A DNA stretch of 64,000 nt from Camelus dromedarius (GCF_036321535.1 NC_087436.1:69752001-69816000); one strand, 5' to 3'; numbered from the stretch's first letter, positions 5,750 through 62,293 are shown. The notes: a model not told the origin generated them from the letters alone. Numbers and translations: made by a program.

Positions 5750-6115
5750 TTCTCATCTCAGGAAATTACCACATAAAACTTGGAGTCACCCTTGACCCAT
5801 TCTTTTCACTCATAAATCACACCCAAGCTGTCAGTATATAGTGTCAGCTCTACCTTTGGAAGACAAGCAGAATCTAACAAATTCTGACCATTTCCACTGC
5901 TACCATCTGGCTAAAGCCATCATCATTTTTGACTTGGAGTACCATAACAGCTCCCTACTGGATGCCTCTGCAAATATCCTTGTCCATCCATTATCTCCTT
6001 CTACCCTATGTCAGATCATGTCACTTCCCCACCTCTAAAGAGCTATGTGACTTCCGTATCAGAATTAATGCCTCATCTCTAACCCTGATAGTGGGACCTT
6101 CCATTACCTCTGTGA
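5750..6115 (+). mobile_element. L2 fragment
   Basis: aaacttggagtcacccttgac...ccatcatcatttttgacttggagtaccataacagctcc. Confidence 0.6.
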
Positions 6116-6340: not shown

Positions 6341-7310
6341 TCTTTTTTTTTTTTTTTTCAATTGAAGTACCATCAGTAATAATGTGTCAATTTCTGGTAT
6401 ACAACACAATATCCTAGTCAGGCATATACATACATATGTTTGTTTTCATTAAAGGTTATTACAAGATATTGAACATAGTCCCCTGTGCTATACAGTAGAA
6501 ACTTTTTTTTTAAATCTTTTTTTATATATAGTGGCTAACATTTGTAAATCTCAAACTACCAGCCTTATCCCTTCCCACCTCCTTTCCCTGGTAACCATAA
6601 GATTGTTTACTATTTCTGCAAATCGGTTTCTATTTTGTAGATGAGTTCATTGTGTCCTCTTTTTTCTTTTTCTTTTTTTTAGATTCCACATATGAATGAT
6701 ATCATATGGTATTTTTCTTTCTCTTTCTGGCTTACTTCACTTAGAATGATGATCTCTAGGTTCATCCATGTTGCTGAAAATGGCATTTTATTCTTTTTAA
6801 TGGCTGAGTAGTATCCCATTGTATAAATATACCACAACTTCTATATCCAGTCATCTATCAATGGGCATTTAGATTGCTTCCATGTCTTGGCTATTGTAAA
6901 TGGTGCTGCTATAAACATTGGGGTACATGTATCTTTTCACATTAGAGTTTCCTCTGGATATATGCCCAGGAGTGGGATTGCTGGATCATATGGTAAGGTC
7001 TATTTTCAGATTTTTGAGGAATCTCCCTACTATTTTCCATAATGGCTGCACCAAACTACATTCCCATCACAAATGTAGGAGGGTTCCCTTTTCTCCACAG
7101 CCTCTCCAGCATTTATCATTTGTGGACTTCTGAATGATGGCTATTCTGACTGGTATGAGGTGATACCTCATTGTAGTTTTGATCTGCATTTCTCTCATAA
7201 TTAGTGATATTGAGCATTTTTTCATGTGCCTATTGGCCATGTGTATGTCTTCACTGGAGAATTGCTTGTTTAAATCTGCCCACTTGTGGGCTGGGTTGTT
7301 TGCTCTTTAT
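6341..7310 (-). mobile_element. Younger L1 (camelid-type) 5'-truncated copy, ORF2 C-terminus + 3'UTR
   Basis: Poly-T at ~6343-6358; antisense L1 motifs (gggattgctggatcatatgg, ttcccttttctccacagcctctccagc, gtgatacctcattgtagttttg). Confidence 0.9.
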
Positions 7311-12839: not shown

Positions 12840-13385
12840 GGTCTCATCTCATCTTGTATTTTAAATACCATACAAATACTGTCATGCCGATGGTTTCCAA
12901 ATCTTCTTCTAAAGCCTGGATACATCCTCTGAATTCTAGACTCATGTATTCAACCACCTACCTGACTTTCCCATGTAGGTGTTCAATGAGCATCTTAAAT
13001 ATTACATCTGTTAAGTACTGAGCTCATGATCTTCCTCCTACTCAACCTATTATTTCCATCATTTTTCAGTAAATGCCAACATTATTTCTTTCATTTGCTG
13101 AAGACTGAACACTTGTTATCGTCCTTGATTTCTCTCTTTCTCCAAAGTTTTACATCTGATCTTTCAAAAAATCTAGGAAGCAGAAACTTTAAATTATCCA
13201 GAATCCAGTCATTAATCAGCACCCCTATACTGATATCACCGTGTCCGACATATCTCTCCTAGATTTTTGCAGCAACCTTCTAATCAGCCTCTCTGCTTCT
13301 ATCATTGTATACCTCCTACCCCCATCTAGTACTTTTTTAGTGTAAAACTCAAAATAGTCATATGAAAATGTTCATCAGATCTCAT
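12840..13385 (+). mobile_element. L2 fragment (upstream of duplicated unit A)
   Basis: cctctgaattctagactcatgtattcaaccacctacctgac...gaatccagtc...agatttttgcagcaaccttctaatc. Confidence 0.6.
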
Positions 13386-13763
13386 TATTTTAAGATACTG
13401 CTGGTTGTCATATAAATTTTGTCCAAATTATGACCAAGGAAGAGTAAAATACATGAACCTGATATTAACAAAAGCTTCTTTCCAGCAAGAAAAAATAACT
13501 CTTCTACTGAGGTCATATTTCACTTTATTTGTGTAGAGAAAACACTGAGATATCTTTTAGACTCTGAGATACCTATTTAAAATAGCATTAACAGACATTT
13601 CAACCTAGGTTTGTTGTGATTCCTCATTATAATAGAGAAGATTAAACTTTTCTGGAGATGGAAGTGATTAATTATTTGACTGATGATCTAAAGTTCTAGT
13701 GATGCTTGAATGAAAAGGTTGACATGAATAAAGATAACAGCTGCACCTTAAGTACAAAAAGAG

Positions 13764-13834
13764 TTTAAATAGCCATGGGACTGAGTCTCAGATCATATTA
13801 GAAAGACTCACCTATCACTAAACTTGGAAATCAG
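13764..13834 (+). promoter_or_regulatory. Casein/statherin-style TATA box (TTTAAATA) and putative non-coding exon 1 (~13792-13834), unit A
   Basis: gagTTTAAATAgc, ~28 nt to atcat, exon ending cttggaaatcag|gtaata; resembles the ~44-nt casein first exons ending ...ttggaaaaaag|gt (recalled). Confidence 0.55.
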
Positions 13835-14606
13835 GTAATACTGTTAAAATGATTTAACTACATCTATTCCTTTTTAGGTATTTTCTGCAGGATGAAAAAT
13901 GTATCAATTATACCAGAAATAGAAATTAAGTTCCTTATAGAAATGATATTTATTGTACCCTAAATAGATAACAAATTTTTTAAATTTGCAATTACTTAAT
14001 AAATTGGGAAGTAGATGAAAAAAATGTTGAAGTCAAAAGCTAAGCTCTCTGTGGTATCTTGGAAAGTATTCTTACATGTTAATATTATATGGTTATTTAA
14101 TTTCAACGTATAATTTGTAATTCTACAGCATTTTATTTTGTGTTAAATAGTAGCCTGTAACTATTAAATGATTGGTCCAACAAATTTAATGCATTTTTCT
14201 ATACACCCTTGCTTCAAAATTTTCTAATAACTTCTTCATGTACTCATATAATCTCTTGACTTGAACTTACGTGTTTATTGCTAAAATTAAAAGTGTTGTT
14301 TTTTTATGTGAAGATAAACTCTGATAGTTGTGCAACCCAGGGCTTAATTTGTCCCTAGTAAGTTGATTTGACCATTGTTGCTAGAATTTTATTTCATTTA
14401 CATACAAACATTTATTTTCAGCAGGTTCCTAGTGGGGTCAGAGTAGTTGTTGCTGACAACTGTAGGTCATTTGTTCAAGGGAAAAACAACTTCATTTATC
14501 TTATCAAATTTTATAGTTCAGGGTTTAGATACAAGTAAAGAAGGGAAATTATCTTATAATTTGCCCATATTTCACCTAAGCACACTGTTACTTTAAGTTC
14601 CACTAA

Positions 14607-14626
14607 ATAGATAGATGGTAGATATG

Positions 14627-14666
<40 letters not shown>

Positions 14667-14692
14667 CACACAGACACACAGACACACAGACA
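14607..14692. repeat. (GATA)n microsatellite followed by GACACACA-type repeats
   Basis: Direct reading. Confidence 0.9.
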
Positions 14693-16229
14693 AATATAGA
14701 TGGATAATATGCAGGCAATTAATCTAAGTCTTTATGATAGTCCTGCACCATGAAATGCTTTCATCTGTTTCTGTGACTTTCTGTGTGAAAAAATGTATTA
14801 CTTTTAAAAATTTTTTTACCAAAATTATACTGTAAAGACATTTGAAGTGGAATTTCAGAGATGTAGGGAAAATGTGAATCAGAGAATTGATGAATTTGAA
14901 TAGCATTGAATTAATTAATTCTTTAAGGAAAAAATTTAAGGAAGATGAAGCAAGGAGAACAAAGGAAAAATAGGAATTTTAACCTTATGTATAGCATAAA
15001 TTATAATAGTTTTCATTAGAAATGTGAAGAATAATCTCACAGAGCCTAATTTCTAGCTACATGGGGCAGATTCAGGGGGGTAGATTTCAAGCTGTCTTAT
15101 TCAAAAAGGAGGGGTATTATATAAATAGAAATTTTTAGATAAAGTATTATCCCTGGAGATTGTAAAACTTTTCCCTTAAGAATTTTCCAAAGTTGTTAGA
15201 CTAATATATATTTTCACTAAGACCAGGGCTGGATAATTTATATGTTTCTGAAATGATGGTACTATATGTTTAAAGCACTGTGCTTAATTTGTAGAGCTAA
15301 AAAGTGTAAGAAAAACACAGTCCCTCAGTGATGAAAGCATGTATGGCTTATGGAACTAAATATATATATATACTTCATATCTCACTAAGCATATTCAGAA
15401 CTGGATTATAAATATACAAGTAATCCTAAACATGCTTAGTAATATCTTATAAGATTCCATAAAATATCCAGAGTTTAACAATTTCTTAAACAGTCAATTA
15501 GGTCACGAGACTTCAGAAACCGAGTATTTCTGAGTGGCAGACAGAAAAATGTTTACAAAGCAGCTTTATACTAAGTAGCTTCTCTTCACTGAGCAAGTTG
15601 TAGAAATAACTTCTTCACAAAATCTAGGGAAAGAAATCATCAATGATTTGAAGGAATATTTTTAGCCTGCATGGGAGGATAATGATACAGAAAATAAGCC
15701 CCCCACCCCTTTTTCTCTTGGGTGTAGGACTGATGCCCAATAATCATCCTCTACATGGAAGGATTTACCCTTTAAATAGAGAAGCCAGTGTGTGACGTGC
15801 CTGTGAATGTGGGGGGAGGGAAGCGTGTGTCAGCATTTGTGTATACAATCATCAGCTAACCTGGCCGCACATGGAAGACGTAGCTAGAATCCATTTTCTA
15901 TAGGGATTTGAAGTTACACTTTAAAGTGCTGGGAGGTAAGGCCGAGATTAAACAGCAGAAGCTCCAGAGACGCAGACTTCAGGTCGGGAAAGTCACTTTA
16001 TAGTGATGTGACCTTACCCAAGTTATTTCATTTTCTCTCATTTAAGAGGTTCCTAAATGAGGTGCTTTGGGAAATAATGACGGTATCCGTGTGAAATATT
16101 ATTTACAAATGAGACTATTTTATTTTCCTTTCTTATTTTATCCTTCCTTCATGCTCCTTAATAATCAGATGATTTCCTACAAGTAAAAATTTCTACTTTA
16201 CTGAATTATGTTCATGTTTTTCCTCACAG

Positions 16230-16292
16230 AAATCTGCTATAATGAAATGCCTGGTTTTGATTTGTATTTTGAGCGTGCTTCTGCAAAGAACA
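16230..16292 (+). pseudogene. SCPP/casein-type signal-peptide exon (63 nt: 12 nt UTR + MKCLVLICILSVLLQRT) of an unrecognised gene or pseudogene
   Basis: ttttcctcacag| acceptor, ATG at 16242, 17 codons, |gtaagt donor at 16293; same geometry as casein exon 2. Confidence 0.6.
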
Positions 16293-17239
16293 GTAAGTAT
16301 AAGAAGAATCTGAGGGAGCCCTTTACCATAGCTTTTTAAAATAAATTCTAAGTATAAATTATGTATATGGTTAGATTCTGTATTAAGTTATGAATTCAGT
16401 AATTAAAAATAGGAACAAATTGCTTTGACTTAAATATTTAAAGAATTTTTAATCCGTTGACCCACTACCTATGTTTTACAAATGTAAATAACTTGCCATA
16501 TTGACTTGAGTTTTTTGAGTAAAAGAAATAAAATGTTTTTTGCCCCATGGAAGTTTCCCCTAGGGATTTGATTCTCTTTTTCCCCATCCCAGATGTAAGC
16601 CATTCTGAAGCTTGTGTATACGTTTCATTGGCCTGTTTACATAATTTTAGTATGCATATCTATGGCTCTTAAAATAAGTAAAAGGATTTTGTGAGGTTTT
16701 TAAAATTTACACAAACATGGCCTACAATATATTGTATATCATTCTGCAGCTTGCTTTATTCATTCAATATTTATGCTGAGATCTACCCAAGTGGATGAAT
16801 GGATCAATACTTTTACTGAAACTCATCTATGTCATACTAGACCAAATGTATGATGCTTTATTTCTAAATAAAATGAAAACTATATTTCCTATATGATTCT
16901 ATTTAGTTGATTATCCTTATTTAATGCCTTTGCAGATGGCCTAAAAGCACTATCAGCTAAAACATTGAGTACTCAATAAAATACAACAGTGTGTGTCTAT
17001 CTATATGTATATAGTAAAAATCTTAATCAAAATGTAAGTTAAATAGTATCAGAGAAAATACTATTTTCTATCAGGATCACAAGGGATAATCTTTATTTTT
17101 AATGATGACACAATTAGATAAATTGTAAAATCCAGACAGGATATTAGGCCAAGAAAAATGTATTCTATAACCATTCTGAACATAAAGTAGATACGTATAA
17201 ATATTGAATTATTGTGATATTTTGACTTTTTTCACTTGG

Positions 17240-17625
17240 CTGTCCAACAAACAACTTAAATATGACACTTGTCTAACACCCAGCAACTGACCTCCAGATC
17301 TGATCTCTGCCTTTTGTCTTCATCCTCCTCTCAGAAACTCAGAACTTCAGTCCTCCAGTTGTATGAGAAAAACATTTGCAATTATCCTTGATTCGATTCT
17401 TTCTCTAAACTCTCACATCGAATATGACATTATACTTTGCAAGTGCCAATTTCACAATACATCTTGAATCCAACTATTTCTCACTGCTCCTCCCCTGACA
17501 ATGCACTATCCAGGCCACCATAGTCTCGCTTGTGGATTTTTGCAATCGCTCCTAACTTCTCTCTTTACTGACATTCTTTACATCCCTTTAGCATGTTTTC
17601 TACAGAGTACTGAAAGGGATCATGT
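17240..17625 (+). mobile_element. L2 fragment (upstream of duplicated unit B)
   Basis: Same L2 region as 12840-13385 (cttgaatccaactatttctcac...ggatttttgcaatcgctcctaac). Confidence 0.55.
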
Positions 17626-18065
17626 CAAAGTCACATTTATCCTTCCAAGATTCTGTAAGTGAACCATTGTGTCTCATGTCCAAATTTAAAACAAGAAGAA
17701 GAAAGTCCTAAATAAGTGAACCATATGTTTAAGATTTATTTCTCCCAGTGAACGTGAATAAATCTACTATTCTACAAAAGAAAACTTTCACTTTATTTAT
17801 ATTGAGGAAGTGTTGCTTTTTGGCAGTTCAGAATACCTCTTTTTTTAAATTAGATAAAGAAATAAGGTAGACATCTATAAAGTACATTTCCAACTTGTCA
17901 TGCTGTGATTCCTCTTTATAACAGAGGAGGTTAAAGAATTTATTGAAATGAAAAAGAGTATGGAAGCCATTAATCCTTTGACTAGTCATATAAATTACTG
18001 GTGATGCTTGGATGAAAGCACTGACATGGTTGAAGATAATGACTGGCCATGAATTTTAGAAAAGG

Positions 18066-18136
18066 TTTATATAGCTGTAAGACTGGGCATTAGAGCTTTT
18101 CAGAATTCTCTGCATACCATCAATCTTGGAAGTAAG
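18066..18136 (+). promoter_or_regulatory. Second TATA (TTTATATA) + putative non-coding exon 1, unit B
   Basis: Paralogous to 13764-13834 at offset 4302; ends cttggaagtaag|gtaatt. Confidence 0.5.
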
Positions 18137-19142
18137 GTAATTCTGTTAGCAATAACTTTATTTCCTTTGTTCTCTTTAGGTACCAGGAAAGAAGAAAATT
18201 TATTAATTATACAAAAAATGGCAGATAAGTTCTTTGTGGAAAATTAAACTGATTATACCTTAAATGGACCTGAATTAATTAAAATGCAATGATTTGTGAA
18301 TTAAGAAGTAGCTGAAGGAGATATAGAAATTATACATAGCACAAGTATTGTGCATTAAAAGTGCAAATATGAAATATTAGCTAAGATTTAGTTACCATAT
18401 TTCAAAGAATAATTTGGAGTTCAAAAGCCTGAAAGAATTATCAATATTATATTACCAACATATTATTATTATTATTCACATGTATAACAGTTGATATAAT
18501 GTTTGACATAAAGGGTATTTAATTTAAAATTTATTGAAGACTCAAATAATATTCTCTTTGCTTTACTTTCATGATGTCATAATAGCAACCCTATATACTC
18601 ACATGTCATTTTTATAAAATGGGAAATGATTGTTAATTTTCCATGTGAAAGTAATCTCTGACAATAGTGCAATCCAGAATTTAATTTCTCCCTGGTAAGA
18701 TGTTTAAGCTCTTATCCTGGTATTTATTTCATCATTATTGTAAGAAGCATTTAAAGTAAGATGTTCCATATATCCACCAGTCTTTAGAAGGTTAAGATGA
18801 TTGTTTTAGACAAATGGAGAAACAAAAATACTTCCCAAGTGTCTTTTAAAAGTTGAGAAGGTGGAGATTTAAAGCTTATGAAGAAATAAGTAGTGCTCTA
18901 AATTACCCTTTTTCAGCTAATCTTAGATTACATTATTTAGATAGCACTAAAAAAAAAAAAAAAAAAAACCTCCCCAATTAAGCAATGTTATCAGATGTTG
19001 CTAATAGTCCTACACCACACACAGTTGGTCACACATCTCATTGTTTTGAATTTCTTTCTTTTCTACAAAATATTTTATAATTTTTTTCATATGCTTTGCC
19101 TGTGGCTCACCATGTGGAATAAAACTAGTCTGTGTATCTCAG

Positions 19143-19203
19143 GAAGAAAGCAATGCAGCTTCTTCTATTCATGGATTTTTACAGTTTTTTCATTGCAAGA
19201 AAA
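19143..19203 (+). pseudogene. Degenerate SCPP signal-peptide exon MQLLLFMDFYSFFIARK (donor lost)
   Basis: ctcag| acceptor, ATG 19153, 17 codons ending ATT GCA AGA AAA, like PRR27 (MKLLL...AFARK) and CSN2 (CTTGCAAGAGAG) as recalled; followed by tatagc instead of gt. Confidence 0.35.
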
Positions 19204-19931
19204 TATAGCACTGCTTTCATTACTCAAACAACAAATATATTCCTCACCAATATCAAAATTCCAGCCTCCCACTCCCTTTTTTCTTGTGCTTTTCCTTTTA
19301 CACATTGTTTTCTTTCAACTCCAAATCTTATGCAATATCTAAAAGACATTTAAATGTCAAATTTAACACAGTAAGAAGTCATTCATTATAAGATAAATCT
19401 GGATTTGAGAAGTATTTAAATATAAAAAATGTACATCTGGGTATTTTTTAAAATGTAAACTATCTACACAAATCATGAAGAGAACAAAAAGGCAAAACAA
19501 AGAAGATTGTACAAGAAAGATGTCTGAGGAATTACTAATGATTTCAACCCTTTCTGCCTACAGCATGAATAACTGGAGAGTGATTTATTAGCTCCCTCTA
19601 GATATATAAAAAATAGTGACATATACCTTACAGGAAACTAACCTCCATCTCCATGAGGGAAGGGATAGAATTAAATAATCTTAATCAAAATAGGAGAATC
19701 AAATAAATATATAATAATAAATATTACAAGTGGAATTTTGTGGATTTTGCTTTAGAAGGGTTTTAATCTCAACCCTTCTAATTCCTAAAACTGTCAATCA
19801 CTTAGCTTCTTTGAGTTTCAGATTTCTCATCTTCAAAAGGAAGATGATAACCACCCTGCTTGGAAATACGTGAGGTCTTCATGCTGAATTACTTCACTTT
19901 TGTCATCTCAAAAAGAAAATTACCTGTCTGC

Positions 19932-20830: not shown

Positions 20831-21139
20831 AGATTCTGCTACTATTGTGTCATTTACATATCAATGGGATTTTTCCTCCAAAAAATTTCTTTGCTGTGTA
20901 AGTAAGATCAAACAGTTGAGTATGGAAAATATTCATTTATGGCTTAATCCTCTGACTTCCTATCTACAATACAAAAAAGAACATTTCCAAAAAGAGTCTA
21001 ATACCAAATTATTTCTGCTCTTCCATAGGAATAGACTTTAAAAATAAATGTTGGCTTGCCTACTGTTTTCCAGGCATTATCGTTGATGCTTTCACATAAG
21101 ATCTATGTTTTTTTAAACAATAAACAGAGGATAAACATT

Positions 21140-21660
21140 ACTGCAGTCAACCTTCACTCCTCTTTTTGTCACATGCCACATGTGAGACCTTTAGTAAATA
21201 ATAATAGCACTACCTTCGAAATAGATCCAGAATCCAGTCCCTTGTCATAATCTACACTGCAAATTACTTGGAACAACCACTATCATTTCTCACCTGAGTT
21301 TCACAGTAGCCCCTGAACTGGATTGCTTGTTCATTCTCCTCTTTTGGAATCTATTCTCAATACGGTTGCAATAGTAACTCTTTCAGAAGACTAGCCCTAT
21401 CTTGTCACTCTTTGCTCATAGCTTTCTAAGAGATTCCCATAACAAAATAAAAGTCAAAGTCCCTTCATGCGTTGGCCTCCTTAACTCTCTGACCATATCT
21501 CTCCTTGGTGTCCTCCACTCAATCATATTAGCCTCCTTGCCACTCTTCGAACCCAGTGGAGATGGTCTCAAATCAAGGCTTTTGAGCCTGCTGTCTCCTT
21601 TGCCTGGAATGCCTGTTTACTAAATGGTTTGCATCCTCACCTCCTCTGGGTATTTCCTCA
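21140..21660 (+). mobile_element. L2 fragment
   Basis: atccagaatccagtccctt...tgctgtctcctttgcctggaatgc. Confidence 0.6.
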
Positions 21661-31999: not shown

Positions 32000-32332
32000 C
32001 TTGGTAACAGGTTCAGATCTCCAGGAAGCAGACTGAGGTGGAAACTAACATGTAGGAAATTTATGAGGGGACCTTGGCATTAACGCCCATGGAATGGAGG
32101 GGAAGGAAGCAGGAAGAGGCCAAGGGAGACAGAAGTCAGGCTGCTGTGTCTCAACCCCACGGGGAATTCTGGAGCTAGGATGGCCTTTAGCAGATTGGTT
32201 AGATGCTGTTTGCCGGCCTGGGAAGGGACAATACCCCTGAGGGAGGGAGGAGGGCTGCTCTACAACAGCTGGGGTGAAAAGTCTTTGGTTCCCGAATGGG
32301 GCTCCCGCTGGAGTATTGCAGCATCCACTGCA
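32000..32332 (-). mobile_element. LTR16-like ERVL LTR remnant
   Basis: Minus strand begins tgcagtggatgctg; plus-strand gggaaggaagcagga motif. Confidence 0.5.
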
Positions 32333-33129
32333 TAGACTAATGCAAAATTCTGGGGAAAAAAGTTAGAAATTGAAGGTGACTTTTTTCCCATTTTTCAGAG
32401 GACAGGATAGTGTGAATATGAGTGACTAACCGACCAACCCCAGTAATTTGGACAGAATTATTCCCAAAGTGAAGCAGGATGACAAACTTAGGTTCTAGCA
32501 GTATTTTTACTCATATCTTTCTCCATAATCTGAACACGTTACATTGAGAGACTTCCAGCACACAGTTCCCATTCATAGCATGAATTTTCATACACTTCAG
32601 ACTGATTTTTTTTTCCTATTTCTGATCCTTCTGTCTGCCAATCTAGCTCCCATTTCAGTCCTTGACTCCATAATCAGACTTGATACTTAGCCTTATTTTC
32701 CAAACCACAAAAAAATAAGTTCCCCTTTCACTGTCCAAACAGCAAGCCGAAAAAAATGTAGACATTTCTAAAACTTCTAAGATGTGGATTAAGGCATTAC
32801 AAACAGAGAAACACATAATTGCAAAAGACCACTCCCTTCAACCAAATTCTTCATGTTTGTAAATTCACCAGAAATGAGGTCACAGAGACTTAAACCAAGC
32901 TAGATGTATACTTTTTTGTTTGGAATACAGAAGACATTGCATTAACAATTTTATTGTATCATAATACTCCTATACAACAGAATGAGTTTCTAGAAAGAAG
33001 CATAATTGTAGCAAACAATATAATGTTATCAAGCACTTCAATGACTTTTAATATTTGTTAGTGCTGTGGGAAACATTGAATCTCACTATGTAAAAGTTGT
33101 CCTTGGAATTTCTGAGTCAGAACAATCAT

Positions 33130-33655
33130 CATGCAGTTGTTCAACAAATATTTGAATACCTGTTATGGGTCAGACACCCTTCCAGGCACTGAGGATGAAG
33201 TGAACAAAACAGTTTCTGCTCTAAAGAAGCCATATTCTAGTGATGGAAGGTCACTATAAAAACAAATATTTATGAATAACACTAAAAAGAATAAATAACC
33301 AAAGAAGAAAACAAATAGATCAGTTAGGAGACAGGGACACCTGCTTTGAAGAGAATTTCAATAGGGTGATATGACATGAGTTGCTGCTCCAGACTGGGTA
33401 ATGGTCTGGGAACAGCCTTTTGGGGGTGAGTCCTAAAATGAACAATGAGAAGGGGTCAGCCCGTTAGTGATCAGAGAGAGCTCATTCCAGGCACAGGGAA
33501 CAGATACAAAAGCCTCAAGGCAGGAATCAATTCAACGTGTTCAATATTCAGAAAGAAAGCTGGCATGGCTGGAGCTTGGTGAACAAGGACCAGAGTGAGA
33601 AACAGCCAAGTGAAAGAACAAAACAAGGGTCAGATCACTGAGGGCTTGATAGGTG
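33130..33655 (-). mobile_element. L2 3' end
   Basis: ttcaacaaatatttgaatacctg, ttccaggcacagggaacag, ggtcagatcactgagggctt. Confidence 0.7.
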
Positions 33656-35217
33656 GAAGGAAAGAAGAACTGGAGTGGGAGGTGAAGGAAGAAAAAGAGT
33701 AACTGGGTGGAAGAAGGCAAGCAGAAAAGAGAAGGAAGACAAGGTCGCAAATATTTTGAGCAATGAAATGTCACTGCTATGAGAAAGCATACAATCTTGT
33801 GAAGGAGGTAAAGTTTTATTGTAAAGGAATGGAAAACAAGACAATCTGCAGAATTCTGGGGGAGAACTAAGGCAGAGTGGCCGGGGCTACTAGGCTCCCT
33901 TGACGGGACACTCAGAAGAGTGAATGACCATAGCAGGGGCTTGGCGAGATGTCTGAGAAGGAGAAAGCAAGCAGTCAGCCAAAGACATTAAGCTTAAATC
34001 AAGCTCCTAGAACTCTAAGATTTTAATTAAAATAGATGTGTTCATTTCTGGAAAGTTATAGGACAGAAACCAGATTGAGGCCAAACTTTGATTGCAGTTC
34101 CAAAAAGTAGAAAGATACAGGGATGTGTATTCACAAAGAGCCAGGAACACATATAAATACTACAGAGGTTCAGTAGAAAAAGGAACCATTTCAAGTCAGG
34201 GGACAAAGGAGTGACTTTCAGAGGTGGGTGTGGTCTTGCCCAGACCTCGCCAGGCTGCACTGGAGAAGGCAAGCTTCCCTTGCCACCCCTGTGGCCCGCA
34301 CTGCAGGGAGTCACGGGAGTCACAGGCGGGCGCCGTCCTGCAGCCCAAGCCCAGCTGTGTGCTGGGTCCTCAATTACTCTGAAACTCATGTGACTTCTTT
34401 CTGAGCAAAAACTTTTCTGAAAAGTGATTTCCATTTTCATTAAAAATATCCGTATTGTCACCTTGTTTTCACTTCCATTGATTGTCATGCACTGTTCCTT
34501 GCTTGTGTCGAACAAAAGTACCCGAGCTTGTGGATCTTTTAATTACTTGTGATTCACGTACTCTGTGGCAGTAAGGTACCCATTTGTACACTTACCCTCA
34601 TCAAATATGCAAAGATATATATTTGGGGAGGGGGAATCAGGTGTATTTACTTAATTAATGGAAACTTATTTATTTCCCGTTGGGGAAAGGAAGAAGTATA
34701 TATTACTTTATTTTTCTCACTACCTCTATTCCTGAACAAACTACTCCTGGAAATTATACTCTATAGTCATAATTCACATGCACATACCTACAAATCTTAA
34801 ATATTATAAAATTAGACTCATTTAATCGAGCCAGAGCCACAGTGGACACGTGATAATTAATATCCAGTAATATACACTGTTAAACAGAAGGGGGCACTTT
34901 AGCAAGTCTCATAGAAGTTAAAAGTAAACACTCTGTAGCAGAAGAGGTTTGATTAAGAGCTTGCTTATTCTCTGCATTTACTACACAGGCTACTCATGAA
35001 GTAATTGTTGGAGTCACAAAACCTATTACCTTCACTGAGATGAGATGCATTGTTCAACCTCAACAATATATTAAAATATTCACTGTCATCATTTATTATT
35101 TTTATCTGTTAATTATCCTTGGAATTGTGCTAGTCTCTCTTCTCTGGTTAGGCAGCTTGGTGCTTTAGACAGGCTACTTGATTAAGAACCAATAATAATA
35201 ATAAAATAAATTTGGTT

Positions 35218-35400
35218 GGGGGAGGTTATAGCTCAGTGGTAAAGTGCCTGCTTAGCATGCACAAGGTCCTGGGTTCAATCCCTAGTACCTCCATTAAAAA
35301 ATAAAAAAAACTACATAAATGAGTAAATAAATAAATAAACCCAATTACCCCTCCAAAAAAGAAAAAAAAATTTTTAAACTAAAAAATAAAATTAAAAAAA
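35218..35400 (+). mobile_element. Vic-1-type camelid tRNA-derived SINE
   Basis: ggggaggttaTAGCTCAGTGGtaaagtgcctgcttagcatgcacaaggtcctgGGTTCAATCCctagtacctcc (A and B boxes), then taaataaataaacccaattacc and A-rich tail. Confidence 0.85.
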
Positions 35401-38947: not shown

Positions 38948-41900
38948 GTAAGTGATTTCATGGTAAAACAGAAGTCATTGTGTAAAACCCATGGCAAATC
39001 ACTCTTTTACCATTTCTGGGTTTTGTTTGTTTCTTTGGTTTTTTAGCTTATCCCACAGCGTCTTATGTCTGCAAGCAACAGCAATGAGGTTAGTATAAAT
39101 ACTTAAAACAATGACCCCTGGTTTTTTGTTTGTTTCTTTTATGAAAGCCCAGTGGGGATGAGATAAAAGCCTTCCACTGATTTATATTTCAGTTCTGCCC
39201 AACAGCCCTTGTATCTAAATGCATTTCCAATCATCACATTTGTTTTGTACACCAGGTTATTTCTAGAATATTATTTTGCCTCCCTTGTTGGATTGCAAGT
39301 TTCTTAAAGGCAGAGACAGAGTCTTGCATATCTTTTAGTTCTAATAGCATCAATATGGGGTATATAGGAGTTCAAAAGATCATCAAATGACTAACTAAAC
39401 CACTGGCATGAGCTAAAGTTGTGCAATCTCACACACAGCAGGGGAGAGATAGTTAAAGCCTAACCTCTAATCACAGTATAAGCTTAGTGAGAAAACATCT
39501 CACCTCCAACAGGAAACTATGACCAGCCGGCTCTGACTTGTGTGATATTTGTAGCAAACGTTGTTCTTAATCATTTCAGCATGTGTAGTAATCTTGTTTT
39601 CATATTATTCTTCCTTTTCTAGTTACTGCTGAATCTTAATAATGCTCAGCTTCAGCCACTACAGCTTCAGGTACCCCAACCTCAATAATTATTTCAAGAA
39701 CATTTTTCTCCTGCTCATTTCTTATGGTACTTGGTATGAGAGCAGAGTGTTTTCTGATTCCATTTCTGAAATCTCAATTTTTAAAGCTATGAGTTTGTTC
39801 TATATATTTGAATTACCATCTGTTTAAAGACTAAAGTAAAAACTATCATCTGATTAACATTTATTTATTGAGAACTTTGTATATGCCAGGCACAGACTCT
39901 CACAACTATGAGATAGTTAAATTTACCAGTTTACACAAAGTCATACTCAGCTAACTGGTTTAAAAAAAAAAAAAAAAAGATTTGACACCAGTCTGGCAAC
40001 TACAAAAACTGCACCTTTTATCCACCTGATTCTGCTCCATATTCCTTATCATGACCACTGGGAATTTAGCATTGTTCATGCTATTTTGCTGGCTCATAAT
40101 GTGTCAAGATGCTGTCCTTTTTTATAATGTAGCAATGGAAATATAGATATTATTTAGGTTTTGTCTCTTTCTTGCTCAAGACTGATTTTAAATTCTTTTT
40201 GAAATGAAAGAGAAGTGCTTCCTTTCTTTCTTTTGTGTCCTCTCAGAGCCCGTTTAATTCCTGGATCCCTCCTTTCCCTGAGACACTACAACAGCAGCAG
40301 CAGGCTCCAATTCCAGGACTCTCCCAATTCTCATTATCAACTCTAGACCGGTTTGCTGGACTGTTCCCGAATCAGATACCCTTCCCAGGACAGGTCATTT
40401 TTACTCCAGGAACCCAGGCAGGACAGCTGGACCCCTCACAGCCTCAGACACCACCGCAGACCCAACAGGGCCCTAATGAGGTAAGTTGGGCCTCTTCCAT
40501 CTCGTTACCCCAAGGAGAGAGAATGCACGTTGAATGTGAAAAATAAATATGAATCAGCTTTGCAATAAGACAGGAGTTACTGAGCAAGAATTCTTTCTCA
40601 TAGTATGTTTCTACCATCACTGGAAGTACTTCCTCATCTTTCTGATTTCTGACATGAAAAAATGCCATGTAAATCAGCTCTTCTAGGTCACAGCCATGAA
40701 TCAAAAGTGTTACAGCATGCTTTGGAAAAGAAAATTAGGAAACTTGCATCTTTAAAAAAAAAGAAGGGAATTAGCATTAATGATGGTACATGTAATAGAT
40801 GACCTTTTGTCATCATCAAAGTCTGCAGATTATATATTTATATGGCTAGGTCTGAAGAAAACAGCTGTGGAATTTTAGATTAAAAAGTCAAGTATAACTT
40901 TTTACCATTCCTTTTTTGGCAGGTTATGCCCTCTTTGTTCACCTTCAGAATGCCTCAAGAGCCAGCACAGGTAAATGAAAGGAATACCATAGCCCCTGTA
41001 GAGAGATGGTTGCCTACTCTCTCCAGGGAATGCTTTCTTTTACATTTGTAGCCTTGACCCCTATAGCAGGGCTATAAAACCCACACAATGCTATCACTGT
41101 CTGGATACTACCATTGCTGGGCTGGCATCAGTTTGTTAATCTTAGGCTCACTTAACAGCTCCCAAAGGGAGGCCAGCTGAGAATCTCCAGGACCCCTGAG
41201 TTTCCAGGACATTACTGGGTTGGGAATTAAGGAGCTCACTAAGCCTGAGGTTCTGTCCTCTCTGCACCTAAAGCTCTGGCATTTTGGCATTTTGGCATTT
41301 GGGAAAAACTCTAGAAAAATGCTATGAGCTAACTTTGCCCAACTCTAAACTTTGTTTCAGGGAAAGATGCATTAAACTGATAAAATATAATATGATGTAG
41401 AGAGAGTTATGAAATTCTGCTCAAAACATTCCCAGGTTTTTATATATTTTCAGTTTAACTCCAAATGGTGGTGATTTCCATTTAATAAGAGAATCTTTTT
41501 AAATGAATTATTAAAGTAATATGGAAAAGCCTCTCAAGATCAGGCTAAACAATTTTATAATATCCTGGATTCAAAGAAATAGGAATATAGATAAATTATA
41601 TCATTCACCAGCGAATATTGACCATTTCATAAAAAGTTACACCACTTGGCTCTGGTATGATCACAATTATGTAATTTTGTCCATCCCTATTACAAAACAA
41701 AAGTTACCACTAGACATTATCTCATTCTATGCCACAGCATTTACAGAGTTAGATACCCGACAAGTGGAATGACTTCATTTTAAGGATGAAGAAGCCAGTG
41801 TTAATGAGATTAAGCTCCCAATCCTGATGCAAATAAACAGCTGAGTTGGAATGTAATTCTTCACCCTTCCTTTAACCACTAAACCAGTGGCTCCCCACCC

Positions 41901-60615: not shown

Positions 60616-62293
60616 ATGTCTCTGAATAAGATTAAAGTCCTCCTTCTGATCACAGCCATGTTGGCAGTGACCACTGGTTTCCCGGTGAGTATCCATTTCT
60701 ACATTCCAGAGTATTTATGGGTTTTTTTGTTGTTCTAATTCATGAATCCTAGGATTTTTCTCCTCTTCATACTGTATTCTACTTTATAAGCATACTTAAT
60801 ATCTGGCTTTTTAATGTTATATTCTATAAAATTTTATAAATTATACACTGTTCAGTGTGTAGCTTAATTCCACATAGCCTTGGTGCAGTGGTGAATTTGA
60901 GGCATTTAGAGTAAATTTAGAGTAACATTTTTCAGAAAAATAATTCCTACAATATTTTCTGGAAGCTTAAATCCTAGGTTAAAAAAAATATATACTATGA
61001 GACAATGTTAGCTAGTGAATAATCAAATTATTTCTCTCCTATATAGGTGTATATTTCTCTGTGTGTTTTATTAGCATGAGTTGAACTAATTTTACTGTTT
61101 GAGCTTTAGGTCTCTCAAGGCAAGGAAAGAGAAGAACGAAGTGTAAGTTACACTTTCTCTTTTTATCATGTAAAATTTCCATATGAAATATTCACGACTG
61201 TGGTTAAAGATATTTCTTTATCCAAACATCTTGAAATCTAGAGAAATCCTTAGAAAGTTTGAATATTAGACTCAACAGAGGTTTAGCCTTCACGAATTTG
61301 TTCTCTGCTTGCAGAAAGAGAATTATCTTATCATCTCATGTAACAGTGGGACTAAACTGATTTATCACTCTGTGATGGATTGGGTTATAATATATTTTAC
61401 TGACATTTTCTAGTCTAATAAAGGTTCATAATTGCTCATGTCTCCACTCACCTTTAACTAACTACAAAACCAATTCCAGAGAAGGTAAAATAATGATGAT
61501 GATGATGATGATGATGAAGAAGAACAACAACAGCAACAACAACAACAACAACAACTTGAGAATTAGGAAATGTGGACCTGTTCTGATGACCCCACTGGTG
61601 GAAAATTCATTAAAAGCTTATTTTGGTCTAAACAGTTAATCAAAAATGTTTAACAAAAAGAAAATAAAATTTGAAAAGAAAGGGTCTTGTTTAGGAATTT
61701 GTTTACACTCATAAATCTTATTATCTGGAAGGAAGCATGATTTTGAGACCAAAACTAGCATGTTAAGGATACAGAAATTAAAAGGAATATGGAAGGAAGG
61801 TGGAGAGGGAAAGAGGGAAGAAAGAAAAGAGGTAGATGAGACTGTGTCTGAGGTCCTTGGGCAAAGAAGGAGGAACTGATGTCTCCTCTTCAACATCCTC
61901 ACTTTGGCCTTATACTTACAGAACTGATTATCAGGAAAATTTGGCTACAAGTAGAAACGTACAAGCACATGGTTATCTCTAAGTAATTTCCTAAAATTTT
62001 CTTTAAAAAATGCAAATTAATCAAATCCCTGTTTACAGTATACACAGAAAAGGTAAATGATTTCAGAACTTCTAAAACCTCTACTTAAAAATGAAAACTC
62101 ACATGTTAATTTGACTTCTTTCTTTCAACAGGTCAGTGACAGAAATGAACTACCTTCGCAGCTTTGTTTGCCCCCTTACCGATATCCATTTGGCACATAT
62201 CCACCATTCCTATACCCATGGCTTAGCTACTTTTATCCTCCTATTCCAGTACCTGGGTCTGCCCCCACACCTATCCCTCTTAATGAGCAGTAA
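60616..62293 (+). CDS. FDCSP: FDCSP, follicular dendritic cell secreted protein: join(60616-60684,61110-61142,62132-62293), ~87 aa; start codon uncertain
   Basis: (MSLNKI)KVLLLITAMLAVTTGFP|VSQGKEREERS|VSDRNELPSQLCLPPYRYPFGTYPPFLYPWLSYFYPPIPVPGSAPTPIPLNEQ*; phase-0 AG/GT exons; downstream of ODAM. Confidence 0.88.
61492..61556. repeat. Compound trinucleotide microsatellite (GAT)n(GAA)n(CAA)n in an FDCSP intron
   Basis: Direct reading. Confidence 0.9.

Follow-up and report, generated by a model that had tools for sequence, protein, structure and literature searches.

Genes and features of the PRR27-ODAM interval

We analysed a 64-kb stretch of DNA from the SCPP gene cluster of the dromedary, Camelus dromedarius (GCF_036321535.1 NC_087436.1:69752001-69816000), here called the window. 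The interval between PRR27 and ODAM in this window contains two related blocks, units A and B, each with a TATA-like box and a putative short non-coding first exon, and a candidate signal-peptide exon, here called sigA. We read these features, with a fair degree of confidence, as the stump of an SCPP gene now extinct, reduced by decay to its 5' end, with an ancient tandem copy of its first part. The region examined comprised the window and 200 kb upstream of it (264 kb), or 314 kb when 50 kb downstream were added, and a map of the locus was built by scanning these 264-314 kb for signal-peptide exons. All coordinates are relative to the window, and a slash in a motif marks a splice or cleavage position. 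The features of the interval are as follows.

12963 to 13340, plus strand: left part of unit A, a fragment of an old interspersed repeat, from the A/B alignment and the copies found with nhmmer
13341 to 13763, plus strand: upstream and proximal promoter-like region of unit A, in which 13658-13757 is the best-conserved window (70%)
13764 to 13771, plus strand: TATA-like box of unit A, TTTAAATA, in the context TTTAAATAGC as in the CSN1S2 box
13794 to 13834, plus strand: putative non-coding exon 1A, ending in CTTGGAAATCAG before a GTAATA donor at 13835; its start is placed about 30 nucleotides (nt) after the TATA box
13835 to 14397, plus strand: duplicated proximal intron-like part of unit A, in which 13894-14028 is similar to the sequence immediately 3' of the presumed exon 1 of PRR27
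16230 to 16292, plus strand: sigA, a casein-type exon 2 with a cacag/ acceptor, 12 nt of untranslated region (UTR), an ATG at 16242, 17 codons (MKCLVLICILSVLLQRT) and a GTAAGT donor
17223 to 17600, plus strand: left part of unit B, the same repeat fragment, from the same two sources
17601 to 18065, plus strand: upstream and proximal promoter-like region of unit B
18066 to 18073, plus strand: TATA-like box of unit B, TTTATATA
18096 to 18136, plus strand: putative non-coding exon 1B, ending in CTTGGAAGTAAG before a GTAATT donor at 18137
18137 to 18732, plus strand: duplicated proximal intron-like part of unit B, with the conserved patch 18620-18734
19143 to 19203, plus strand: second signal exon as proposed in an initial annotation of this DNA, with an AG acceptor and, from an ATG at 19153, 17 open codons (MQLLLFMDFYSFFIARK); a GT donor is lacking

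The surrounding genes were placed by their signal exons and by protein matches. The names of the casein and statherin-like exons are presumptive, as they were assigned from signal-peptide sequences.

-103585, plus strand: CSN1S1 signal exon
-76178, minus strand: CSN2 signal exon
-60475 and -43120, plus strand: signal exons of two statherin-like genes
-25182, plus strand: CSN1S2 signal exon, 41 kb upstream of the 16230-16292 exon
-4577, plus strand: PRR27 signal exon, with an exon chain confirmed by the alpaca protein
200 to 778: last exon of PRR27, an open frame whose best named match is alpaca proline-rich protein 27 (89% identity)
16242, plus strand: ATG of the candidate signal exon sigA
38897, plus strand: ATG of the ODAM signal exon, 21-25 kb downstream of units A and B
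40208 to 40543: ODAM, by a match to the Pfam family ODAM (PF15424, E 2e-37)
60616, plus strand: FDCSP signal exon
62057 to 62290: FDCSP, by a match to the Pfam family FDC-SP (E 2.9e-8)
76713, plus strand: CSN3 signal exon

Units A and B and sigA thus lie inside the SCPP cluster, on the plus strand like all of their neighbours except CSN2, and the alpaca homolog and the Pfam match uphold the placement of the block between PRR27 and ODAM in the initial annotation. In the literature, C4orf40/PRR27 is located directly upstream of ODAM, and the order that follows is ODAM, FDCSP, AMTN and SCPPPQ1 (PMC4174742); an identification of the interval with SCPPPQ1 was rejected on this gene order. For camelids, ODAM alone is reported between CSN1S2 and CSN3, and no second CSN1S2 (PMC6726744). 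The literature searched yielded no account of any gene or pseudogene located between PRR27 and ODAM. That the interval has no annotated gene, as stated earlier, is consistent with both papers, on the basis of the literature rather than of a genome annotation.

An ancient tandem duplication

A BLASTN self-alignment paired 12963-14397 with 17223-18732 at 60.7% identity over 1549 columns (E 1e-80). The promoter pieces of the two units (-160 to +110) aligned with z scores of 37.6-39.4, and none of 200 dinucleotide shuffles scored as high. The tandem pair had been recognised by eye at 13420-14370 and 17680-18710, and the self-alignment confirms it over a wider range; the short strings quoted at that time are present in the sequence. 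In a global alignment made with MAFFT, 841 of the 1403 aligned bases were identical, with 26 gap events and a Kimura two-parameter (K2P) distance of 0.59. No significant collinear similarity was found past 14397 and 18732, and unit B is a 1.5-kb copy that contains only the repeat, the promoter-like part, exon 1 and the proximal intron-like part. The mammalian neutral rate is about 2e-9 per site per year, and at this rate the K2P distance would correspond to an age of roughly 100-150 million years. Judged from this divergence, the duplication would have occurred roughly at or before the placental radiation.

The identity between the units varies along the alignment. When divided into windows of about 100 columns, it is highest at 13658-13757 (70%), 14295-14394 (69%), 13887-13985 (66%) and 13759-13857 (65%), compared with 45-63% in the remaining eight windows, and the best stretch, 13658-13985, surrounds the putative start site. 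A second well-conserved patch, 14281-14397 in unit A and 18620-18734 in unit B, ends in GTAAG in both copies and is a candidate second non-coding exon; a profile of this patch found no further copy in 264 kb.

This pattern raises the question of whether the blocks are co-opted regulatory DNA, that is, enhancers or alternative first exons for ODAM, FDCSP or PRR27, with sigA as unrelated debris. The four best windows, around the TATA boxes and at 14295-14394, would fit such a role, the blocks share their strand with ODAM, and the mouse locus contains 20 candidate regulatory elements common to the caseins, Prr27, Odam and Fdcsp, according to PMC10435465. However, the excess of conservation is small and was found post hoc, and nothing ties the blocks to ODAM transcripts. 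Furthermore, neither unit is similar to the sequence upstream of ODAM, FDCSP or CSN3. We consider such a co-opted regulatory role very unlikely.

Repeat content of the units

The left 380-440 bp or so of each unit consist of an old interspersed repeat, and the copying postdates the insertion of this repeat because it forms the left part of both units. A profile of the A/B alignment recovered further copies with nhmmer at 5772-6003, 21128-21323 and -28756 to -28468 (E 2.5e-9 to 5e-7). These three score below E 1e-6, and with three weaker matches the locus has six other copies, on both strands. The initial annotation had each unit preceded by an L2 region; an interspersed repeat is indeed present in both, while the family name L2 comes from that annotation and is tentative. 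The five clear L2-like copies (5772-6003, 12963-13340, 17223-17600, 21128-21323 and -28756 to -28468) are all on the plus strand and represent the same part of the element, which may be due to chance or may be a trace of older serial duplications. Between unit A and sigA, at 14600-14700, there is a compound microsatellite of (AGAT)n followed by (ACACAG)n-like repeats.

The repeat content suggests another explanation for the two units, namely that they represent an old segmental duplication of non-genic and perhaps wholly transposon-derived DNA, in which the motifs arose by chance and sigA alone is a genuine SCPP relic, separate from them. Repeat sequence makes up the left third of each unit, the region has an A+T content of 65-70%, and parts of 13540-13720 may faintly resemble the 3' end of the same repeat family. 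However, each of the six other repeat copies in the locus ends before the promoter part, and their continuations are unlike units A and B. Profiles of three sub-blocks of 13341-14397 (promoter, intron and patch) found no sequence besides A and B in 264 kb, and the same held for a profile of the whole block in 314 kb. An old low-copy element could still conceivably be the source of 13341-14397. A DNA search of the whole 2.3-Gb assembly with unit A, unit B, the repeat part and 14400-16230 returned only self-matches, in a search so insensitive that it missed the 61%-identical unit B.

Promoter-like motifs and putative exon 1

The TATA-like boxes at 13764 and 18066 are exactly 4302 bp apart, as are the GT donors at 13835 and 18137, which corroborates the spacing given previously. 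The distance from TATA box to donor is 71 nt in units A and B and also in CSN1S2, and the end of exon 1, GGAA..AG/GTAAT, is common to all three.

We searched both strands of the 264 kb, that is, 528 kb of strand, for a composite of TTTAWATA followed by AG/GTAWK 55-100 nt further on. The composite occurred seven times, and an eighth match was found in the extra 50 kb. Three of the seven are located 0.85-1.7 kb upstream of the signal exons of CSN1S1, CSN1S2 and one statherin-like gene, and two are units A and B. This rarity, with three matches at known 5' ends of SCPP genes, and the exact 71-nt spacing shared with CSN1S2 argue against a chance origin of the motifs in non-genic DNA, as does the presence, further along the same strand, of a real signal exon at a distance similar to that in the caseins. 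On the other side, neither unit aligns significantly with any SCPP promoter. Weighing these observations together with the repeat content, we regard the non-genic explanation as unlikely.

The remaining two of the seven composites, at -48096 to -48008 and at -192287 to -192197, are on the gene strand and have no signal exon assigned to them; 3.2 kb separate the former from the presumed promoter of the second statherin-like gene, which lies downstream of it. Both may be alternative promoters or further relics of promoters.

The motifs around the two boxes were compared with those of the casein genes. CSN1S1 and CSN1S2 carry TTCTTAGAA, a STAT5 site of the gamma-activated sequence (GAS) type, at -69/-68, whereas no TTCNNNGAA was found within 400 bp upstream of either TATA box, in line with the earlier claim that these promoters lack the casein GAS site. 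The GATA/E-box string attributed to unit A, AGATAACAGCTG, is also present. The suggestion of a salivary rather than a milk type, made in the initial annotation, depends on the lack of a GAS site and on this one string, and is tentative. Because units A and B have no significant alignment to casein or statherin-like promoters, the call of a TATA promoter with an exon 1, which appears plausible, rests on motifs and geometry.

A similarity of another kind was found within the intron-like part of unit A. A segment of 135 nt, 13894-14028, matched sequence adjoining the presumed exon 1 of PRR27 with a z score of 5.4, which none of 300 shuffles attained. Unit B showed no such similarity to PRR27 (245 of 300 shuffles as high).

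A casein-type signal exon downstream of unit A

The 17-codon ATG exon at 16230-16292 noted in the initial annotation, sigA, is a well-formed exon of 63 nt with an acceptor and a GTAAGT donor, and is located 2.4 kb downstream of unit A. Its layout of 12 nt of UTR and 51 coding nt, in phase 0, is the same as in the second exons of CSN1S1, CSN2 and CSN1S2 in this genome. The sequence 16170-16307 aligned with CSN1S2 at -25247 to -25117 with 65% identity over 140 columns (E 1e-5 in 264 kb). Consistently, sigA with its intron flanks scored a z of 9.7 against CSN1S2 exon 2, with 0 of 300 shuffles as high. The corresponding comparison with the PRR27 exon-2 region was not significant (z 1.2, 50 of 300 shuffles). 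These sequence comparisons identify CSN1S2 exon 2 as the closest detectable paralog of sigA.

The exon is nevertheless strongly diverged. Across the 51 coding nt, it has 23-28 identities to the other second exons, compared with 35-40 among the caseins themselves. In a scan with a profile of six second exons, sigA was the second-best match outside the training set, full-length and in register. By inspection, the small residues that usually precede the cleavage site of the signal peptide are replaced (..LLQ/RT). In a database of 5.8 billion clusters that includes the alpaca PRR27 model, no protein of 25-2000 amino acids shared three 5-residue words with the 46-residue stop-to-stop frame of sigA.

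The second 17-codon signal exon proposed at 19143-19203 did not withstand the corresponding comparisons. Apart from the missing splice donor, its similarity to sigA was equalled or exceeded in 191 of 300 shuffles, none of its comparisons with the other second exons (six compared, sigA included) was significant, the best being PRR27 with 23 of 200 shuffles as high, and the profile of six second exons gave no match at E <= 50. We therefore rejected the segment, both as an exon and as a relic of one. The claim of two paralogs each with its own signal exon fails accordingly: unit B is a copy of 1.5 kb from the 5' side, and the exon assigned to it passed none of the tests.

Search for the remaining exons

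If sigA once belonged to a gene, more coding exons would be expected downstream. No collinear matches to exons of CSN1S2 or PRR27 were found in 1.2-38.8 kb, and a strict scan for phase-0 exons in the 22.5 kb between 16.3 and 38.8 kb gave eight candidates, none of which was SCPP-like. Every acceptor in the 930 bp after sigA reaches a stop within 9 codons. There were no recognisable SxE-rich or P/Q-rich coding exons, stop codon or polyadenylation signal, although exons of 20-45 nt could escape detection at such a divergence. A candidate exon of 30 nt at 19840-19869 encodes EDDNHPAWKY, which resembled what we took to be primate PRR27. The resemblance was not upheld, as 271 and 207 of 300 shuffles scored as high in comparisons with the regions of PRR27 exons 3 and 4, and the candidate was rejected.

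It has been suggested that the features are either relics or one short live gene. A live, unannotated and lineage-specific gene would be transcribed from one or both TATA modules, would have exon 1 spliced to sigA or to unrecognised exons, and would produce a very short secreted peptide or a non-coding RNA. In favour of such a gene, sigA retains its ATG, its open frame, a strong acceptor and the consensus donor. The 71 nt from TATA box to donor are also free of indels in both copies, as compared with the 26 gap events in the alignment as a whole, and conservation across the A/B alignment is highest in the 100 promoter-proximal columns. Saliva-type SCPP genes are moreover short and have a fast turnover, according to PMC12457735. 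However, no continuation of the reading frame was found, no SCPP-like exon was recognised in the 22.5 kb, the sigA frame shares no words with any protein of the database and small residues are missing from the usual cleavage site of the signal peptide. A live gene is quite unlikely in our view, and a relic fits better with the missing downstream exons and database proteins.

Other features of the locus

The signal exons of the two statherin/histatherin-like genes at -60475 and -43120 (loci L015-L017) are identical at 49 of 51 nt (MKILVFAFIMALMLAMI and MKILLFAFIMALMLAMI), which points to a recent tandem duplication, far younger in sequence than the A/B pair. The signal exon of FDCSP at 60616-60684 reads MSLNKIKVLLLITAMLAVTTGFP from the first ATG, with an N-terminus six residues longer than in the human form; either translation starts at another ATG or the lineages may differ in this respect. 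A hypothetical protein of the gray whale (P0004) combines alpha-s2-casein-like and PRR27 exons in one model and has an end that derives from beyond the last exon of PRR27, and it has the appearance of a prediction artefact, in which the model reads through both CSN1S2 and PRR27.

The most G+C-rich part of the window, at 32000-34600 (0.415 in 32-34 kb), contains long open frames on both strands and is probably a younger repeat or long terminal repeat insertion in the PRR27-ODAM interval. The only Rfam match in the window is a tRNA-like sequence at 35222-35293 (Rfam tRNA, 36.9 bits), of which a 76%-identical copy is present in a PRR27 intron (-2471 to -2364); this is probably the head of a tRNA-derived short interspersed element. 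A match between 6343-6489 and a PRR27 intron was discarded, since it is due to a common interspersed repeat, of which 13 more copies occur across the two strands.

Relationship to known SCPP genes

Among the genes of the cluster, CSN1S2 is similar to the features described here in several respects. The exon-2 format of 12 nt of UTR and 51 coding nt with a GTAAGT donor is the same, and the similarity to sigA and its flanks is significant. The TATA context of unit A, the 71-nt spacing and the end of exon 1 (GGAAAT.AG/GTAATA) are also alike. However, units A and B lack both the GAS site and a significant alignment to the CSN1S2 promoter, none of the many coding exons of CSN1S2 was found here, and sigA is far more diverged than the signal peptides of the caseins.

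On human and mouse maps, both copies of CSN1S2 are located upstream of PRR27, the second one between CSN1S2 and PRR27. The mouse gene order is also described in PMC10435465. PMC6437144 and PMC6726744 report that CSN1S2 was duplicated before the eutherian split and that one copy was lost in Artiodactyla, camels included. The relic in the dromedary differs from this second copy (CSN1S2B or CSN1S2-like) in that it is placed downstream of PRR27, 13-19 kb past its last exon. An identification with the lost copy is excluded by this position, provided that the gene order of mouse and human held in the ancestor.

PRR27, also named C4orf40, is adjacent and on the same strand. Its signal peptide is identical to that of sigA at 8 of 16 residues, and the region by its presumed exon 1 is the one matched by 13894-14028 of unit A. 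However, its exon 2 has 11 nt of UTR and 48 coding nt and is not significantly similar to the sigA region, unit B does not resemble it and no proline-rich last exon follows sigA.

The human pseudogenes CSN1S2AP and CSN1S2BP, as well as other pseudogenes of the SCPP cluster, are comparable in that they are dead members of the same cluster. CSN1S2AP and CSN1S2BP have retained most of their exons and are annotated, whereas only a 5' stump and a duplicated promoter block are left here. Frequent gene gain and loss has been described for the SCPP cluster (PMC12457735).

Proposed origin and fate of the duplicated block

These observations are, we suggest, most probably explained if an SCPP gene of the casein/PRR27 clade, now extinct, was formerly located between PRR27 and ODAM and left behind a decayed 5' stump, together with an ancient tandem copy of the first 1.5 kb of this stump. 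The stump would consist of the TATA-type promoter and short non-coding exon 1 of unit A and, 2.4 kb further on, the casein-format exon sigA. After the insertion of the repeat, and roughly at or before the placental radiation as suggested by the K2P distance of 0.59, the first 1.5 kb or so, which comprise the old repeat, promoter, exon 1 and proximal intron 1, would have been copied once in tandem, 4.3 kb downstream, to give rise to unit B. Beyond sigA nothing recognisable would have survived, and no credible signal exon would belong to unit B. At present, the pieces most probably have no function as a gene.

The duplication, the geometry of the motifs and the paralogy of sigA to CSN1S2 exon 2 are features of the sequence itself. 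We infer in addition that unit A and sigA once formed one gene, that the TATA and exon-1 motifs once functioned as a promoter and that the locus is no longer expressed.

Several observations weigh against this scenario. In comparisons with casein or statherin-like promoters, the -160 to +110 pieces of units A and B gave z scores of only -0.4 to 1.6, with 23-157 of 200 shuffles as high, while three casein promoters compared among themselves gave 17-22. The casein-like promoter that had been proposed is thus supported by motifs and geometry but not by alignment (z <= 1.6). An ungapped comparison of unit A with CSN1S2 gave 65 identities in 161 positions, rank 27 of about 264,000 positions, and the excess in identity comes mostly from the anchoring motifs. 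The match of sigA to the profile of six second exons has an E value of 0.73. Moreover, unit A resembles PRR27 and sigA resembles CSN1S2, and they need not be pieces of one gene. By a rough estimate, an ATG, a frame, an acceptor and a donor would all have stayed intact after such divergence with a chance of 5-10% if sigA were pure debris, and the better conservation around the TATA box could indicate a present function. The silence of the locus is assumed.

A further, improbable alternative would be that the relic marks an unnamed SCPP gene from the CSN1S2/PRR27 lineage that predates the placental radiation and is perhaps intact in some mammal, or that the twin TATA modules still fire in the dromedary, either to give a transcript that is non-coding or encodes a short secreted peptide, or to serve ODAM as alternative promoters from far upstream.

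The SCPP cluster is a textbook case of how tandem duplication provides new tissues with their proteins, and its history has so far been reconstructed from living genes and a few annotated pseudogenes. As it stands, the extinct-gene reading refines this picture only slightly, with debris from a gene of a known kind in a locus known for its high turnover. If dated, a relic in the PRR27-ODAM interval would contribute a further event of duplication and loss to this history, and a marker to look for in other mammals. If it is true that some lineage keeps an intact copy, the family would gain a gene.

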